A stretch of 64,000 bases of DNA. Source: Candidatus Eiseniibacteriota bacterium. Its GTDB lineage: Bacteria > Eisenbacteria > RBG-16-71-46 > SZUA-252. The notes under the pieces were generated by a model. That model saw only the letters and a program-made list of their open reading frames with translations. It was not told the origin of the DNA and did no database searches. Shown in pieces: positions 4,317-51,613 of the stretch. Location: contig OY969801.1 in the NCBI GenBank assembly GCA_963703225.1, forward strand, positions 393,701 through 457,700, read 5' to 3'. Each line of letters begins with the position of its first letter. Positions within the stretch are counted from its first letter, which is position 1. The translations under genes and the position numbers were made by a program.

Positions 4317-5652
4317 ACCGCTTGATCTTCCGGTGGAGATAGCCGCGGTCCATGCCCAGTCGCCGCGAAGCCTCCGTCACGTTCCACTGACACTGCTTCA
4401 GCGTCGCTAGGATTGTGTCTCGCTCGGCCTTCTCGCGGGCGACCTTGATTTCGCTGGGGGGTCCTTCGTCCGCGTTCGCCGGGAGCGCCTCCTCCACGTC
4501 GGCCGCGCCGACGGTTTCGCCGTCGGTCATGATCAGGATCCGCTCGATCAGGTTTCGAAGCTCGCGGATGTTCCCGGGCCACCCGTAGCCGGTGAGGCGC
4601 TCGATCGCATCCCGTGTGAACGCGCGGGGCGGCCGGCCGTGCTCCGACGACAGCCGGGCCCCGAAGTGCGCGACCAGGAGCGGGATGTCCTCCCGCCTCT
4701 GCCGGAGCGGCGGGAGGTGGATCGGGACCACGTTGAGGCGGTAGAAGAGGTCTTCCCGGAAGCGTCCCGCCTGGATTTCCTCCTGGAGGTCCTTGTTGGT
4801 CGCGGCGACGATCCTCGCGTCGACCGAGAGGGTCCGCGTGGCGCCGAGCCGCTCGATCTCTCCGGTCTCGATCGCGCGGAGAAACTTGGCCTGCGTCTCG
4901 AGGCTCATGTCGCCCACCTCGTCGAGGAAGAGCGTGCCGCCGTCGGCCGCCTCCAGCCGTCCGCGCTTCATCTGGGTCGCCCCGGTGAACGCTCCCTTCT
5001 CGTACCCGAAGAGCTCGCTCTCGACCAGATCCTTGGGCAGCGCGGCGCAATTCAATTTTTCGAACGGGCCACGCGCCCGCGCGCTGCCCTTGTGGATCGC
5101 GCGGGCGACCAGCTCCTTCCCGGTTCCGCTCTCCCCGGTCACGAGCACCTTCGCGTCGGTCTTGGCCACCTTCGCGATCTCGGCGCGGATCTGGTCCAGG
5201 CTGGCGCTCTTCCCCACCATCTCGTCCGACGCGCCGGCCATCGCGCGGAGCCGCTCGTTCTCGCGCTGGAGCGCCCGGATCTCCAGCGCGCGCTCCACCG
5301 TGACCTGGAGCCGGTCCGGCCCAAACGGTTTCTCGACGAAATCGGCGGCGCCCAACCGGATCGCCTTCACCGCCTCCTCGATCGATCCGTGGCCCGACAT
5401 CACCACGACCGGGAGGTCGGGGTTGGCCGCCTTGGCCAACTCCAATAGGGCGAGACCGTCCTTGCCAGGGAGTTTGAGATCGGTGAGGAGGAGGTCGACC
5501 CGCTGCTGCGCGAGGATCCGCTCGGCCTCCTCCGCGCTGACCGCCGTGAGCGGCTCGTAGTGGCGCTTCAAGCTCGCGGCTGTTTCGAGCAACACCGAGG
5601 GCTCATCGTCGACGATGAGGATGCGGAGCTTGCCGCCGCCCGCCGCGCTCAC
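4285..5652 (-). CDS. Sigma54-dependent response regulator (NtrX/AtoC-like: REC, AAA+, Fis HTH)
   Basis: ILIVDDE, DLKLP, GESGTGKE, GAFTGA, LFLDEV, FREDLFYRLNV, C-terminal HTH. Confidence 0.95.
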   Translation of the reverse strand: MSAAGGGKLRILIVDDEPSVLLETAASLKRHYEPLTAVSAEEAERILAQQRVDLLLTDLKLPGKDGLALLELAKAANPDLPVVVMSGHGSIEEAVKAIRLGAADFVEKPFGPDRLQVTVERALEIRALQRENERLRAMAGASDEMVGKSASLDQIRAEIAKVAKTDAKVLVTGESGTGKELVARAIHKGSARARGPFEKLNCAALPKDLVESELFGYEKGAFTGATQMKRGRLEAADGGTLFLDEVGDMSLETQAKFLRAIETGEIERLGATRTLSVDARIVAATNKDLQEEIQAGRFREDLFYRLNVVPIHLPPLRQRREDIPLLVAHFGARLSSEHGRPPRAFTRDAIERLTGYGWPGNIRELRNLIERILIMTDGETVGAADVEEALPANADEGPPSEIKVAREKAERDTILATLKQCQWNVTEASRRLGMDRGYLHRKIKRYGLARETAGS

Positions 5653-9447: not shown

Positions 9448-9476
9448 TTGACGCATCCGCAGAGCGAAGCTATCCT
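9448..9476 (+). promoter_or_regulatory. Sigma70-type promoter for the small secreted ORF / TPR activator
   Basis: TTGACG-17 nt-TATCCT in the intergenic region. Confidence 0.65.
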
Positions 9477-9487
9477 AGCTAGTTAGA

Positions 9488-9628
9488 GGCAGTGTTCGTC
9501 AACGGGCGCCTGCTCCCGCTCGGGAGCATCCCTCTCGGACCGCGGTATCGCAGCCGCGGCGACGACGCCTACTGACGAACTGCCGGCAACCACCAAGCGA
9601 AGCGACTGGAGCGCCGGGTGTCGCTTCG
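9488..9628 (+). ncRNA. Structured 5' leader (candidate cis-regulatory RNA)
   Basis: GGCA..GTTCGTCA (9488-9501) pairs with TGACGAAC-TGCC (9573-9584), enclosing hairpins TGCTCCC/GGGAGCA and CCGCGG/CCGCGG. Hairpin CGAAGCGAC/GTCGCTTCG (9598-9628) lies just before RBS TAAGGAG. Confidence 0.4.
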
Positions 9629-9644: not shown

Positions 9645-9947
9645 ATGAGGGTCCAGGTTCCACGCCGCATCATTGGTTTGGGCATCCTCGTCGCCTTCCT
9701 CTGTCTGACTCCGGCTCTTTCCTCGCCAGTTTTTGCCAGGCCCTATCACTGGGAAGACAGAGACTCGCCAGATCCGCCCCTCCCAAAGGGTGACGGTGAT
9801 GGAACGGTCGTGAAGGCTGCGGGCAACTCAAGTGCCCCGGCTCTCAGCACGACGGCGCCGAATGGCACGCGGACGTCGGTCACGAGCATGGTGAAGAGCG
9901 CTCTCCTCATGGTGCGTCTGGGCTACGGCTTGCGCTGGTACCTGTAG
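9645..9947 (+). CDS. Small secreted protein / candidate signalling-peptide precursor (100 aa)
   Basis: RBS TAAGGAG at 9631; Sec signal MRVQVPRRIIGLGILVAFLCLTPALSSPVFA; acidic Pro/Gly core DRDSPDPPLPKGDGDG; low-complexity linker; C-terminal amphipathic/aromatic helix. Confidence 0.75.
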   Translation: MRVQVPRRIIGLGILVAFLCLTPALSSPVFARPYHWEDRDSPDPPLPKGDGDGTVVKAAGNSSAPALSTTAPNGTRTSVTSMVKSALLMVRLGYGLRWYL

Positions 9948-10027
9948 CAGGTACGCAGCGCCCGTAATACGCGACACGGTCCCGGACCGTGCCGCGCGCC
10001 GTGGTATCGCAGTCGTTGAGGGCCGGT

Positions 10028-13000
10028 ATGGACGGACTTGTCCCGAAAGATCGATCGGACATTCCGCACCGAACCGTTGGGGCTCCCGGTCCCCGTGCAT
10101 CATTTGACGCGGGCGCGTACGGCGAGCACAAGGCTCAGGAGCTCGGGGATCTCTATTTCGCGGCGGACAACTACGTCGTCGCGTTGGAGTACTACCGCCG
10201 CGCTCTAGACGCGGGTCCGAGGGCCGATACCCCCGAGAACCGGGAGGACCTTCTCCGGATCGGGACCCAGATCGTCGAGTGCCTCAGGCATCGCGGCGAT
10301 CTCGCCGACGCGGTCGACTCGCTCCACGATCTCCATCGGCGCCTCCGTCCGCACGTAACTCGCGAGCAGGCGGGGCGTCTTTCGGCCAGCCTCGCGCTTC
10401 TGCTCTTCGAGCGGGGCCGCTACCGGCCCGCGCAGCGGGCGGCCACCCTCGCCTACCGGCTCCTCCGCGACACCACGCTCAACCTCGACATCGGTCGCAC
10501 CGAGATGATCTTCGGGGTCATCGCGCTCCGAACGGGTGACTGGAACGCGGCCCGCGAGTACTTCGAGAGCGCCATCGCGACCTACCGGCGCGCGGGCTAC
10601 GACGCCGGGATGGCAACGGCCTACAACAGCCTCGGCCTCCTCCACAAGAATCACTGCCGCTTCAAGGAGGCGGCCCGGTTCCTGGAGCAGGCCCTTCGGA
10701 TCGGCGAGCGCTCCGGTCTCTTTCACGATTCGGCCACCTACGTCCACAACCTCGGCATCGTCCACGAGAAGATGGGCGATTGGGATGTCGCGGAGGATCA
10801 CTACCGGCGCGGCCTTCAGATGAATACCGAGGTCGGAAATCCCGTCGGGAAGGCGAGGGCGCTCTTCTGCCTCGGAAACCTCCGCCGCAAGCGCCGCGAT
10901 TTCTCGACGGCCGAGAACCTACTTCGCCAGGCCCTCGCGCTCTCTGTGGAGCGCGGCTTCCCGCGGGAGACGGTCCTTTCCCGCGAGGGGTTGGGCGACC
11001 TCTACGCCGACCGCGACATGCTCCAAGAGGCCCGCGCCGAGTACGAAACGGGGCTGGCCATGACCGATCAGTTTGCCCCCGACTCAGACCTGACGGTCGA
11101 GCTGGTCCGGCGGCTCGGGGACGCGCAGCTTCGAATGGGCGAGATCGAGCCGGCGAGAAGGAGCGGCGAGCGAGCGCTCGCGGTCGCGCGGCGACTGGGC
11201 GATCGGATCGAAGAAGCTTGCTCGCTCCGTCTTCTGGGTCTCGCGGCCGCGGAGGCAGGGGAGTTTCCCGCGGCGCAAGAGCGTCTCGGGGAGGCGAGCC
11301 GGATTCTCCTCGCGATCGGCAAGCGCTATGAGCTGGCGCGTCTCAACATGGGCGCCGGGCTCGCCTGGCGCCGCCGGGCGCGAAAGGGGAAGTCGCGTGC
11401 CATCCTGGACGAGTCGGTTGGCTACCTGCGCCGCGCGGTGGCGGCGTACGAGAGCCTCGCGCTCCCCGCGCTGACCGCGCGCGCCCTCCTCGAGCTTTCG
11501 AGGAGCGAGCTCATGCGGGGCCTGGTCGACGAGGCCGTGCTCCACCTCGACCACGCCACGTCCATCCTCTCCCCCGAGGACGATCCTGCCCTCGCGCGCG
11601 AGATCGAGGAGTTCCGGACCGAGATCGAGAAAGGGCTGATCGAGGGGACCTCCGCCCAGAGCAACGAGTTTGCAGCGTTCGAGGAAGTCCGCAGCGTGCT
11701 GCGGGGCGGCGACGCCGAGTTGGCCGTGCAGGAGGTGTTGTCGGTGACCGCGCGCAGGGTATCGGCGGCGCGGGGCTGCGTGGCGGCACCGGCGGTCCAC
11801 GGCGGGATCGAGGTTGTCGCCTCGGTCGGCATGTCCTTCCGCGTGGCGCAGGACCTTCTGAGCGAGATGGAGCGCCGCATCGGCTCGGCCCGCCTGGCAT
11901 CGGCGCCGGTCGTGAGCAGCCGCGCGGGAGCCGACGGGCGATTCCGCGACATGCCGGGGATGACCCATTTGAGCCCTAGGACCAGCATCGCCATCATGCC
12001 GCTCTCGCTGCCCTCCGGACTTCCCGGGTACCTCTACCTCGATCGTCCCGAGGAGGGGCCGCTGGGCCCGTTCAAACAGCGGGAGATCAACTTGATCGCG
12101 GTGCTCGCGAATCACGTCGCGGTGGCCATCCTCGAGCTGCAAAGGCAGCGCCTGGCGCGCGAGAACACGGCGCTTCGGGGCCGTCTCCTTGGCTCCGCCA
12201 ACGATCATGGCATCGTGACGAGAAGCCCGGAGCTGCTCGAGATCCTCTCGCTCCTGGAGCGGGTCGGGCCGAGCGACGCCACCATCCTGATCGAGGGCGA
12301 GACGGGGAGCGGCAAGGGGCTCCTCGCGCGCGCGATCCACGCCTCCAGCGCCCGCGCCACCAAGCCGCTGATTCAGGTCAACTGCGCCGCGCTGCCCGAG
12401 CAGCTCCTCGAGAGCGAGCTTTTTGGGCACGTGCAGGGCGCCTTTACCGGAGCGGTGCGCGAGAAGGTCGGTCTTTTCGTGGAGGCCAGCGGCGGCACGC
12501 TCTTCCTGGACGAGGTCGACAAGACCACGATCACGATCCAAGGAAAGCTTCTCCAAGTCCTCGACAACCGCGAGGTGCGGCCGGTCGGAGGGAACAAATC
12601 GACCAAGGTGGACGTCCGCGTGGTCTGCGCGACGAACGTCAATCTCAAGGCAAAGATCGCGCGCGGCGAGTTCCTCGAGGATCTCTACTACCGGCTCAAC
12701 GACATCTGCTTCCGGGTCCCGCCGCTTCGGGAGCGGCCGGAAGATGTGCCGCCCCTCGTCGAGCACTACAGCCGCCGGTTCGCGGCCGAGATGGGCAAGG
12801 AAATCCGGGGCGTGGATCAGGACCTGATCGCGGTCCTCGCCGGGCTCCATTGGCGGGGCAACGTTCGCGAGCTGGAAAAGGTCGTGAAGCGCCTTGTGGT
12901 CATGGCGAATGACGGCGATACGCTTTCGATGGAGCTTCTGCCGCGCGACCTCCTCAAGCCAGAGAACGAAAACGGCGACTCCCCGTCCACGTTGAGGGCC

Positions 13001-13165
13001 GAGGTTGCCAAGGTGGAGCGGCGGCTCATCTCACAGGCGCTGGAGCGCCACAACTGGAACAAGCTCCAGGCCGCCAAGGAGCTCTCGCTCTCCTACCCGA
13101 CCCTCCTTCAGAAGATCAAGCTCTTCCGCCTCGACCGAAGGCTTCAACCCCGGCAAAAGGCTTAA
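10028..13165 (+). CDS. TPR-GAF-AAA+ sigma54-dependent transcriptional activator (bEBP) with Fis-type HTH
   Basis: About 550 aa of TPR repeats (AYNSLGLLH, VHNLGIVH, LFCLGNLR), GAF-like region (GYLYLD...IAVLANHVAVAI), GETGSGK, GAFTGA, LFLDEV, YRLND, HTH NKLQAAKELSLSYPTL. Confidence 0.92.
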   Translation: MDGLVPKDRSDIPHRTVGAPGPRASFDAGAYGEHKAQELGDLYFAADNYVVALEYYRRALDAGPRADTPENREDLLRIGTQIVECLRHRGDLADAVDSLHDLHRRLRPHVTREQAGRLSASLALLLFERGRYRPAQRAATLAYRLLRDTTLNLDIGRTEMIFGVIALRTGDWNAAREYFESAIATYRRAGYDAGMATAYNSLGLLHKNHCRFKEAARFLEQALRIGERSGLFHDSATYVHNLGIVHEKMGDWDVAEDHYRRGLQMNTEVGNPVGKARALFCLGNLRRKRRDFSTAENLLRQALALSVERGFPRETVLSREGLGDLYADRDMLQEARAEYETGLAMTDQFAPDSDLTVELVRRLGDAQLRMGEIEPARRSGERALAVARRLGDRIEEACSLRLLGLAAAEAGEFPAAQERLGEASRILLAIGKRYELARLNMGAGLAWRRRARKGKSRAILDESVGYLRRAVAAYESLALPALTARALLELSRSELMRGLVDEAVLHLDHATSILSPEDDPALAREIEEFRTEIEKGLIEGTSAQSNEFAAFEEVRSVLRGGDAELAVQEVLSVTARRVSAARGCVAAPAVHGGIEVVASVGMSFRVAQDLLSEMERRIGSARLASAPVVSSRAGADGRFRDMPGMTHLSPRTSIAIMPLSLPSGLPGYLYLDRPEEGPLGPFKQREINLIAVLANHVAVAILELQRQRLARENTALRGRLLGSANDHGIVTRSPELLEILSLLERVGPSDATILIEGETGSGKGLLARAIHASSARATKPLIQVNCAALPEQLLESELFGHVQGAFTGAVREKVGLFVEASGGTLFLDEVDKTTITIQGKLLQVLDNREVRPVGGNKSTKVDVRVVCATNVNLKAKIARGEFLEDLYYRLNDICFRVPPLRERPEDVPPLVEHYSRRFAAEMGKEIRGVDQDLIAVLAGLHWRGNVRELEKVVKRLVVMANDGDTLSMELLPRDLLKPENENGDSPSTLRAEVAKVERRLISQALERHNWNKLQAAKELSLSYPTLLQKIKLFRLDRRLQPRQKA

Positions 13166-13193
13166 AAGTAGCTATTAAGTTTGTTAATAGTCG

Positions 13194-13218
13194 TAAGTGG
13201 TTGGGGTTTGGCCGCTTA
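13194..13218. promoter_or_regulatory. Imperfect palindrome TAAGTGG-N11-CCGCTTA (candidate IHF or activator site)
   Basis: Inverted repeat in an AT-rich patch upstream of a sigma54 promoter. Confidence 0.4.
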
Positions 13219-13310
13219 TCCACCCTCTTCAATTTCGTTATCAATTATCAATCCAAAATCACGCAGCTTCGCCCCTCCCGCATCACGCCAAGCCGCCTTC
13301 GGATCGACCT

Positions 13311-13340
13311 TGTAAGATGCTGATTTTAATGAGTGTTACA
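13311..13340. promoter_or_regulatory. TGTAA-N20-TTACA palindrome (candidate IHF or UAS site)
   Basis: TGTAAGATGCTGATTTTAATGAGTGTTACA about 40 nt upstream of the -24 element. Confidence 0.45.
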
Positions 13341-13376
13341 ACCTCATTACGATCAATATTGAGGCGGCCCGAAACG

Positions 13377-13392
13377 TGGCATGCGAGATGCA
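13377..13392 (+). promoter_or_regulatory. Sigma54 (-24/-12) promoter 1
   Basis: TGGCATGCGAGATGCA = GG-N10-GC with TGGCA at -24. Confidence 0.7.
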
Positions 13393-13402
13393 ATGAACAA
13401 GT

Positions 13403-13540
13403 CAGCGGAGGGGGGGACCTCCAAAGAGCCCGCAGGCCTCGCCAGCGTTAGGCCATGGGTTAGCCGCCAATTCGAGCACCGGCCTCGGAAAACGCGGTGT
13501 AACCTGAAGAGAGCTGGCAAGGCCGGGGCTCAATTTTTTG
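13403..13540 (+). ncRNA. Candidate sigma54-dependent small RNA (about 135 nt)
   Basis: Starts about 12 nt after the -12 GC. 5' hairpin GGAGG/CCTCC, then a long interrupted stem: GAGCCC/GGGCTC, GGCCT/AGGCC, GCCAGC/GCTGGC, GGTT/AACC, GCACCG/CGGTGT. Followed directly by TTTTTT; no credible ORF. Confidence 0.55.
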
Positions 13541-13774
13541 CCTCGTTCGTTCCTTCCGTAGATCCCTCGATTTCTCGGTCCACCACCCGCCTCTCGTTCT
13601 CGCTCATACGACCCGCCTCTTGTTCTCGCTCACTCCACCCGGCTTTTCCGGATGACTCGCCGCTCTCCCTCGGAGCGCGCTCGCGCCTCCACCGCCAGCC
13701 CCACCGCTGTAGCGCGCCAGTCACAGTGTCCCAGATACGACGCCAAATCCCCACTCCAGGGCCATCGACACCCA

Positions 13775-13807
13775 CTGCAATAAGCAACTGCCCTGCAATA
13801 AGTTACA
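13775..13807. promoter_or_regulatory. CTGCAATAAG direct repeat / TAA-N19-TTA element (candidate IHF or UAS site)
   Basis: CTGCAATAAG at 13775 and 13793, about 30 nt upstream of sigma54 promoter 2. Confidence 0.45.
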
Positions 13808-13832
13808 AGCCAAGAGATAGCCGGCCAATCCG

Positions 13833-13847
13833 TGGCATGACGCTTGC
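13833..13847 (+). promoter_or_regulatory. Sigma54 (-24/-12) promoter 2
   Basis: TGGCATGACGCTTGC, near-consensus TGGCACG-N4-TTGC, upstream of RBS GGAGG and the GTG at 13930. Confidence 0.8.
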
Positions 13848-13929
13848 GGTTCGAGTCTGTGGCGGCTGGGGAATCGCCTGCCGCGACAGACAAGATCGGA
13901 AGCGGACAAACCGGAAGGAGGTGGGCTAC

Positions 13930-14697
13930 GTGATCCGGATGTGGGGTAGAGTGCTCGCCGTCGCGGGCCTGCTCGGGGCCGCGGGATGCCATGACAACAA
14001 CACGATCGTCGCGCCTGATCCGCCGCCATTCACGGTGGAGGGCGTCCGGAGCGTCACGGGTGACGGGCTGGTCACCGTTTCCTGGCGCGGCAATCAGGAG
14101 ACCGACATTGACTACTACAAGGTCTATCGCAATTTCGCGCCGACCGGCACGTTCACGCTGATCGGGACGACAGCCGATATTCGCTACGAGGACCGGAACG
14201 TGGCCAACGGGACCACCTATTTCTACGCGGTGGCCGCGGTCGATCGGGCAGGCCAGGAGAGCCCGGACCTGAGCTATGAGAACGTATTCGACACACCTCG
14301 TCCCGAGGGCGTCGACGTCACGCTCTCGAACGCCGACGTCAATGACGTCGTCAGCGGATGGGATTTCTCAGCCTACACTCGCCGAGCCTCGGCCGACCCC
14401 AACACGGACATCTTCTATGCCGCGTCGGGCGGGCACTTCCTCGTCTACACGCCGGTCGACACGCGCATCCAGGACGCCGGATTCGTCGCCCTCCGGGACG
14501 TCGACTACGCTCCACCCTCCGGTTGGTCCGCCGACGGCGTGGTGGAGGCGATTCCGGGACACAGCTACATCGTGCTGACGCGAGACAATCACTACGCCAA
14601 ATTCGAGGTGGTCGCTCGAGACGACGCCGGCATGAACATGGACTGGGCCTATCAGATCGACGTCGACAATCCCGAGCTCGCGAGGCCGCTCCCATGA
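13930..14697 (+). CDS. Lipoprotein with fibronectin type III-like domain
   Basis: RBS GAAGGAGG; lipobox LLGAAGC; GDGLVTVSW...YKVYR...NGTTYFYAVAAVD...ES. Confidence 0.85.
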   Translation: MIRMWGRVLAVAGLLGAAGCHDNNTIVAPDPPPFTVEGVRSVTGDGLVTVSWRGNQETDIDYYKVYRNFAPTGTFTLIGTTADIRYEDRNVANGTTYFYAVAAVDRAGQESPDLSYENVFDTPRPEGVDVTLSNADVNDVVSGWDFSAYTRRASADPNTDIFYAASGGHFLVYTPVDTRIQDAGFVALRDVDYAPPSGWSADGVVEAIPGHSYIVLTRDNHYAKFEVVARDDAGMNMDWAYQIDVDNPELARPLP

Positions 14698-51301: not shown

Positions 51302-51613
51302 CCCACCGCCAAACGAAACGGGAGCCTCAGCACTAGCGCGCGGTCGGTGCAGGGCCGGCGACGCGGGGTCAGGGACCGACGCTAGGGGGCTCCCGAGTTC
51401 GTTCTCTGGCTCTACGGAAGGCAATGCCCGTGCCACGCTGGTCTCCATCGCCGAATCAATGCGCGCCTATAAAGTCGTTATTTGACATATGCTTACCATG
51501 CACTAAATTCGACTCACGTTCGCATTCTGCGAATTCACCCTGGGTGCGAGCGACCTGCAGGACATGCCGTTGCAGAGCAGGGCAAAGGCTGGAACCCACA
51601 GCAGGAAAAAGCC

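Follow-up and report, generated by a model that had tools for sequence, protein, structure and literature searches.

We analysed a window of 64,000 nucleotides (nt) from a Candidatus Eiseniibacteriota genome (contig OY969801.1; all positions count from the first letter of the window). We found that the stretch 13403-13540 of its forward strand is almost certainly a real and independent gene of a small structured RNA. The gene is preceded by its own sigma-54 promoter (P1), ends in an intrinsic terminator and lies beside the gene of a sigma-54 activator. The RNA represents a new, uncatalogued family, of a type (sigma-54 small RNA, sRNA, beside an activator) that is already well known. The best explanation that we can offer for the whole, at slightly less than an even chance, is that this independent sigma-54 RNA gene feeds back on the activator mRNA. 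The parts of the gene are as follows.

13377-13392, + strand: P1, the sigma-54 (-24/-12) promoter TGGCATGCGAGATGCA of the RNA gene
13403-13540, + strand: small structured RNA of approximately 135 nt, with its 5' end predicted from promoter geometry and its 3' end within the T-run
13407-13422, + strand: hairpin 1, GGAGG / loop GGGGGA / CCUCC, the proposed target-recognition module
13426-13531, + strand: rod domain with internal loops (helices 2-6), whose basal stem GAGCC(C)/GGGGCUC also serves as the stem of the terminator
13477-13483, + strand: apical loop of the rod, CACCGGC, invariant (alignment columns 75-81)
13534-13539, + strand: T6 run of the intrinsic terminator

We looked for near-consensus sigma-54 sites in the window and detected three, P1 among them, while the mean of shuffled sequences was 0.44. 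In the usual sigma-54 geometry the start lies about 12 nt past the GC of the -12 element, that is near 13403 for P1. RpoN is encoded in the genome of the window. A first-pass annotation of this DNA had already proposed such a promoter, and we located it at 13377-13392 with its TGGCA and TGC elements unchanged in 23 of 23 aligned relatives (TGGCAY-N6-TGC). A loose sigma-54 pattern was also run against the whole genome. It gave 48 matches, with approximately 60 expected from composition, and therefore it was not discriminating.

Further, we searched a query of 221 nt against 24 genomes of the family of the window. Matches were obtained in 22 of the 24 genomes, at 77-93% identity, and the two genomes with no match were 60% and 78% complete. 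The full-length matches began at the -24 element and stopped at the T-run, and the flanks could not be aligned. The resulting alignment contained 23 copies in 138 columns, and 22 of these copies were exactly 138 nt long. With a covariance model, 37 of the 41 genomes of the order, among them 25 of 25 of high quality, gave exactly one copy each. The window's own genome contains one copy of the gene.

The stretch 13403-13540 folded with a minimum free energy (MFE) of -64.9 kcal/mol (z = -3.1), and none of 200 shuffled sequences folded equally well. The consensus structure was calculated with RNAalifold on the 23-copy alignment and compared with two kinds of controls, namely the structure slid by 1-3 columns and 500 shuffles. 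We obtained 35 consensus pairs, 13 of them compensatory. Of the alignment cells, 98.6% were able to pair on the consensus, while the slid controls gave 29-50%, with 0-4 compensatory pairs. None of the 500 shuffles matched the observed value on four of five measures; the fifth, further pair types, was attained by 149 of them. Helices 2-6 of the rod were 95.7-100% paired, with 13 pairs changed on both sides. Hairpin 1, which is joined to the rod domain by AAA, was identical in all 23 copies of the order. Since hairpin 1 and the basal stem are invariant within the order, covariation is neutral evidence there.

These results bear on several structural claims of the first-pass annotation. The GGAGG/CCTCC hairpin was found at 13407-13422, invariant in the order, and the T6 run at 13534-13539. 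Four of the five proposed helices were present in the MFE fold. Three of them (13426-31/13526-31, 13435-39/13520-24 and 13441-46/13513-18) are contained in the covariation-supported consensus. The helix 13458-61/13501-04 contributes only the pair 13458/13504 (columns 56/102) to the consensus, owing to a shift of one genus in the alignment at this place. The fifth helix, 13476-81/13495-500, was not recovered and is replaced by 13463-67/13494-98 and 13471-77/13482-89, with 3 and 6 compensatory pairs.

A T-rich tail (5 T or more within 9 nt past the basal stem) was detected in 26 of 30 loci of the order. Some of the remaining loci have a back-up terminator, and in some loci a further terminator stands ahead of the next promoter, P2 (see below). 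A simple terminator scan of the window did not flag the stem of the RNA, because its loop far exceeds the size that the scan allows. The scan found no terminator between the stop codon of the activator gene and P1.

We considered whether the element is a small protein gene, a known housekeeping RNA such as 6S or signal recognition particle (SRP) RNA, or a product of chance, and we regard this as hardly credible. An open reading frame (ORF) from ATG 13381 does cross the element, in frame with the next gene, and the shape of the rod is reminiscent of 6S or SRP RNA. According to the first-pass annotation only ATG-GGT-TAG lies inside; this short frame is indeed present at 13455-13463, and the ORF from ATG 13381 had been overlooked. 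However, no reading frame was open in all 23 copies. The 13381 frame was open only in the 8 genomes of the window's genus and contained 1-3 stops in the other 15. A search with Rfam 15 gave 0 matches at gathering threshold both in the 64-kb window and in 20 related loci. Within 13100-14000 the best E-value was 1.9, on the opposite strand and at chance level, and none was below E = 1. The 6S RNA was rejected as a candidate, as RF00013 matched elsewhere in the genome (93.3 bits) and not at the RNA locus. Chance is excluded by covariation. Two of the checks suggested with the first annotation agreed with its proposal: no housekeeping RNA was matched, and promoter and structural covariation were both conserved in relatives.

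The RNA gene lies between an activator gene and an envelope operon.

10028-13165, + strand: activator gene, encoding a TPR-GAF-AAA+(sigma-54)-HTH enhancer-binding protein of 1045 amino acids (aa), the presumed activator of P1 and P2
13833-13848, + strand: P2, a second sigma-54 promoter TGGCATGACGCTTGCG, which precedes the envelope operon beginning at 13930

The activator was assigned by Pfam (Sigma54_activat, 1.1e-63, plus TPR, GAF and HTH_8). Its start is probably ATG 10028, which is preceded by a putative Shine-Dalgarno (SD) sequence GAGGG at 10018-10022, and the start region is conserved. In all 23 loci of the order the activator gene was located upstream of the RNA, and the same was true of 18 of the 19 loci from other families. 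The operon behind P2 encodes an fn3 lipoprotein, a DUF4384 protein, an M6-family metalloprotease and a PorV/PorQ-family protein. It was found downstream of the RNA in 19 of the 23 order loci, and outside the order in 17 of 19. This arrangement could be expected if the RNA were a cis-acting leader or attenuator, with P1 reading into the lipoprotein operon and the stem and T-run serving as a regulated, riboswitch-like terminator. A large conserved structure, which could sense a ligand, has the terminator as its base, and in other families the T-run does not follow directly after the conserved core. Nevertheless, we consider this explanation very improbable. The operon has its own conserved sigma-54 promoter: P2 was kept in 16 of 16 order loci examined, at 156-323 nt past the RNA terminator. 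In the window P2 lies 293 nt past the T-run, which agrees with the earlier claim that the next gene has a promoter of its own. A conserved palindrome is present at -112 of P2 in 26 of 27 order loci, a second terminator precedes P2 in some genomes, and no alternative antiterminator fold was evident. Moreover, three of 23 order genomes (G003, G005 and G016) keep the RNA beside the activator gene with the operon not downstream; G003 and G005 have a response-regulator-like gene behind the RNA instead. P2, the terminator tail and the retention of the RNA where the operon is missing therefore indicate an independent gene linked to the activator and not an operon leader. Together with conservation from the -24 element to the T-run and covariation, they strongly support the independent sRNA that had been proposed in the first annotation.

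We made some minor observations on the surroundings of P2. In G016 (locus L013), about 230-300 nt past the RNA, a tRNA-like fragment (GGGTTCGAATCCC) and an opposite-strand ORF of 316 aa replace the lipoprotein operon, which suggests a rearrangement at that spot. The palindrome mentioned above, TCACAGTGT (consensus YCACASTGT), lies at 13721-13729 (+ strand), approximately 112 nt before P2. Among the 27 order loci with P2 it was detected in 26, and it was rare elsewhere (4 of the loci scanned in other families). No copy was found ahead of P1, and the palindrome is a candidate enhancer of P2. In the spacer that separates the RNA terminator from P2, a tandem direct repeat of 22 nt, ACCCGCCTCT(C/T)GTTCTCGCTCA, is also present in two copies with TACG between them (13585-13632, + strand). 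One relative has a different direct repeat in the same spacer, as judged by eye.

We wanted to see how far the gene extends beyond the order. The covariance model gave only weak hits there (15-31 bits). Among the weak class-level hits that we fetched, 19 of 20 contained the hairpin GGAG-G(5-7)-ACCTCC. In the order loci, as well as in 17 of the 19 from outside it, the hairpin was located 28-30 nt past a sigma-54 promoter; two loci of family f15 have a variant -12 element. The activator gene upstream and the lipoprotein gene downstream occurred together in 16 of 19 loci outside the order. Of the 206 genomes of the phylum, 163 contained the exact pattern of promoter and hairpin, as did 98 of the 121 with high quality; the reversed control had 0 matches. 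The 163 include the unpublished genome G085, and without it 162 of 205 genomes have the pattern. It was single-copy in all listed genomes except one. In a species-representative collection at least 120 stretches matched the pattern, and among the matches listed (80), 57 were labelled Candidatus Eisenbacteria or Eiseniibacteriota, 17 had no taxon title and 6 carried other labels.

Families without the exact pattern retain a gene in which the -12 element or the hairpin deviates, and rare lineages have variants of the stem and of the loop of hairpin 1. Outside the order the body of the RNA is longer and different, so that the form present in the window is the short, order-specific one. In the other families the T-run does not stand directly behind the conserved core. 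Family f9 (among loci L061-L200) has extra conserved blocks, CUGGGCUAGCCGG...GGUCGAGGGUACGAGCCCC...CCGGCUAGCUUGGA, and T-runs only about 420-450 nt past the hairpin. One f9 block, GGUCGAGGGUACGAG, resembles in the same sense the translation initiation region (TIR) of the activator itself, UCGAGGGUUCGAA.

For the function of the RNA we propose the following mechanism. The activator would turn on both the RNA, from P1, and the envelope operon, from P2. The RNA would then act in trans by means of its invariant 5' hairpin, of which the G-rich loop and the 3' arm may pair with C-rich sites in the mRNA of the activator operon. Two such sites are predicted, one in the leader and one at or near the activator start codon. 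Pairing would close a feedback loop, probably a negative one, as Qrr does on luxO. In the order of the window the apical loop ACCGGCC might make a second contact, with GGCCGGU between the SD and the AUG. We hold feedback on the activator's own mRNA tentatively, at somewhat below an even chance. The gene, its structure, promoter, synteny and distribution were observed in the genomes, as were the enrichment of complementary sites and their co-variation with the hairpin (see below); transcription, the choice of the activator, the pairing and its sign are what we infer from them.

We looked for complementary sites in 92 loci outside the order that have distinct RNAs. In each of them, sense-strand stretches complementary to its own hairpin loop and 3' arm were counted if they comprised 7 nt or more. 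We observed two peaks. The first one, at the activator start, comprised 26 hits among the 43 loci covered; most of them were GAUCCCCCCCGAU within codons 5-7, and in other families they were GGUCCCCCC or GAGGUCCCCC in the 5' untranslated region (UTR) or at the SD. The second one comprised 26 hits in 38 loci and was located approximately 500 nt upstream of the activator start, just past a -10-like GATACT; judging from this motif it would be near the 5' end of the operon mRNA. The background was 0.029 per bin of 100 nt, which corresponds to an approximately 20-fold enrichment at the two positions. A same-sense control gave no peaks (2 in 43 and 1 in 38).

The complementary sites were also found to vary together with the hairpin. 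In G033 the hairpin is GGAGA-GGGGGA-UCUCC, with a compensatory stem change, and a complementary site of 11 nt, GAUCCCCCUCU, precedes the start. The loop of G028 is CUGGGAA, and GUUCCCA is present in the leader and UUCCCA past the start. Complementary sites of 10 nt and 9 nt were found in G030.

In the window itself the proposed pairing site lies in a leader.

9486-9600, + strand: structured 5' leader of the activator operon, with an unpaired invariant UCCCUC at 9529-9534 as the proposed loop-pairing site

The leader is preceded by a sigma-70-like TTGACG-17-TATCCT at 9448-9476 (identified by eye). In 19 sequences we obtained 26 consensus pairs, 19 of them compensatory, and TCCCTC was unpaired and invariant in 19 of 19. 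The fold consists of a long-range stem, GGCAGUGUUCGUC/GACGAACUGCC, and two covarying hairpins, and 9486-9600 had no Rfam match at gathering threshold. Between UCCCUC and the loop GGGGGA 5 Watson-Crick pairs and 1 G-U pair are possible. The apical-loop sequence ACCGGCC (13478-13484) is complementary to GGCCGGU in the SD-AUG spacer of the activator, with a local duplex of -16.7 kcal/mol, and this spacer motif was conserved in 21 of 21 genomes of the order.

The same co-variation could arise if the hairpin were mainly a DNA operator, with an inverted motif in the promoter-proximal region and at the start of the activator, and the complementarity of the RNA only a by-product. At +5 to +20 of P1 the sequence GGAGG...CCTCC forms a palindrome in the DNA, a protein able to recognise its site in either orientation would account for matching changes at all three places, and the hairpin stem shows no covariation within the order. 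We find this explanation quite improbable. The spacer retains its run of G and varies in length between 6 and 8, while the opposite would be expected of a dimer operator, and upstream sites often have no second arm, e.g. GAUCCCCCCCGAU in family f9. All of the enrichment was found in the orientation complementary to the RNA and within transcribed sequence. In the leader site the four C are mostly followed by U or C, each of which pairs with G (as judged by eye), and the remainder of the RNA covaries as RNA.

Another explanation is that the RNA binds or titrates a protein, as a rod-shaped scaffold or decoy for CsrA, the activator or another protein, with no base pairing. The structured domains include nearly every nucleotide, and loops and one whole hairpin make up the invariant parts. 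A hairpin that is near-invariant across the phylum, as the 163 of 206 exact patterns indicate, is typical of protein recognition, and in ours a GGA stands at the end of the loop. The genome encodes CsrA (93 bits), and Hfq was not found in it at 91% completeness; therefore a role in protein binding has to be kept in mind. A precedent is CrcZ, as described in PMC5113210. Still, we estimate such a role to be unlikely. The RNA presents a single GGA in a loop, and its other GGA triplets were not conserved across the 23 copies (by eye). No gene of an RNA-binding protein is conserved beside the RNA. Protein binding also leaves unexplained why complements of the hairpin cluster at two places of the mRNA in one orientation, and why the sites change to match the hairpin variants.

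Two special cases of protein binding were rejected. CsrB/RsmZ-type RNAs have many GGA motifs in hairpin loops, and a CsrA sponge of this type does not agree with only one such GGA. A CrcZ-type Hfq sponge was set aside as well, as the RNA has no repeated A-rich motifs and Hfq was not found in the genome.

A number of observations weigh against our proposal that the RNA is driven by the adjacent activator and feeds back on its mRNA. Both ends of the RNA are predictions, from promoter geometry and from the T-run. The genome of the window (3.1 Mb) encodes approximately 20 sigma-54 activator domains (24 match segments), and we sought an enhancer motif common to P1 and P2 and found none. The first-pass annotation regarded the RNA as the direct output of the adjacent activator; the adjacency is conserved, but with so many activators and no shared motif, direct activation of P1 by it is plausible from synteny. 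Hfq (PF17209) was not found in the window's genome, which is 91% complete. The matrix of cognate and non-cognate pairs was not clean: G034 has no cognate match of at least 6 nt, and the hairpin of G029 fits the G028 region better than its own. The counts overstate independence because the genomes are related, and the counting windows and the word length were set after the first cases had been seen. A DNA-binding protein reading the motif in both orientations predicts the same co-variation.

Further points of this kind concern the window itself. Its complementarity is short, namely UCCCUC in the leader, GUCCC at +12 and GGCCGGU in the spacer. Cofolding of the RNA with the activator TIR gave -2.9 kcal/mol, at the 48th percentile of 400 other TIRs of the genome; cofolding cannot model loop-loop contacts. 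Genome-wide complements of the hairpin were not above a rough composition estimate made by hand. At least one 9-mer complement of the hairpin occurred at 526 places, and 12 nt were reached by only 9, including the gene itself. We judge that the data argue moderately for feedback in the RNA family and weakly in the window.

We also compared the full-length RNA with the 5' UTR behind P2 in 13 genomes of the order, using duplexfold against shuffles. The z-values ranged from -4.4 to +2.3, and no common site was found. Sliding duplexfold of the 5' module over 16 loci outside the order was noisy, with the best windows often in coding sequence, and this approach was replaced by the counting of exact complements.

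A more complete version of our proposal can be formulated for most of the Eisenbacteria genomes examined as a switch, in which the TPR-GAF activator drives the envelope-protease operon and the RNA. The hairpin loop would co-evolve with two sites of the activator mRNA, and for this reason the RNA would be the Hfq-free feedback arm of the switch. The 138-nt form of the window would be a minimised one, with an added loop contact at the ribosome-binding site (RBS). We consider this version possible but rather doubtful.

Several known sRNAs resemble the one described here. Pxr of Myxococcus xanthus and its relatives, in the accounts of PMC5568312 and PMC5684412, is an sRNA of approximately 110-140 nt encoded downstream of nla19, a sigma-54 activator gene. 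As with Pxr in these accounts, our gene has its own predicted sigma-54 promoter, a fold of multiple stem-loops, conserved 5' stems and a position conserved within the lineage. In contrast to Pxr, it had no Rfam match, its activator is a TPR-GAF protein and not a response regulator, and it belongs to another phylum; moreover, P2 and the envelope operon follow it, and the RNA is complementary to the activator mRNA. The account in PMC11928866 gives the binding targets of Pxr as still unknown.

CrcZ of Pseudomonas, as presented in PMC5113210, is encoded downstream of cbrB and has an RpoN/CbrB-dependent promoter and its own terminator, and read-through from the activator gene is possible. Our RNA gene likewise lies immediately downstream of a sigma-54 activator gene, and no terminator was detected between that gene and P1. 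CrcZ, a titrator of Hfq/Crc, has A-rich Hfq-binding motifs. In contrast, our RNA is G+C-rich with no repeated A-rich motif, Hfq was not found, and the two RNAs are not homologous.

The Qrr sRNAs depend on Hfq, occur in multiple copies and have a linear conserved seed. Our RNA differs from them in that it is single-copy, its proposed seed lies in a hairpin loop, Hfq was not found and there is no homology. According to PMC3730234, Qrr sRNAs of Vibrio are activated by LuxO and sigma-54 and repress translation of luxO, which results in a feedback loop. We infer the same feedback logic for the Eisenbacteria RNA.

In enterobacteria GlmY is a sigma-54-dependent sRNA encoded beside its activating two-component system GlrR (QseF), and it serves as a protein decoy for RapZ. 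Our RNA did not match it in sequence or structure. Rfam has models for Pxr, CrcZ, Qrr and GlmY/GlmZ.

To our knowledge no member of Eisenbacteria has been cultured, and a literature search retrieved no paper naming both Eisenbacteria and sigma-54. The RNA would be among the first regulatory RNAs defined for these bacteria. It is single-copy, nearly universal in the phylum and tied to one activator and one operon for envelope proteins or a secreted protease. The predicted circuit is small and portable. Its components would be the activator gene together with the leader, the RNA under P1, and P2. The covariance model can be used for annotation of Eisenbacteria genomes.

Some additional features were noticed in the window and its genome. 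The third near-consensus sigma-54 site, TGGCACGGGCATTGCC, is located at 51420-51435 (- strand). A second activator domain is encoded at about 4717-5220 (- strand), approximately 5 kb upstream of the activator gene. An RBS-like complement of the hairpin, GGAGGUCCCCC, occurs at G000:C1:1624548 and 512172. At G000:C1:969238 (+ strand) a hairpin CGCGCGAGG-UCCCCC-CCUCGCGCG contains a perfect complement of 14 nt to hairpin 1, the best trans match of the genome. Between the leader and the activator gene (9645-9947, + strand) we observed an ORF of approximately 100 aa with a hydrophobic N-terminus and no Pfam match. ORFs of similar size and position are present in five distant families, as judged by eye, and the product could be a partner or a signal for the TPR-GAF activator.

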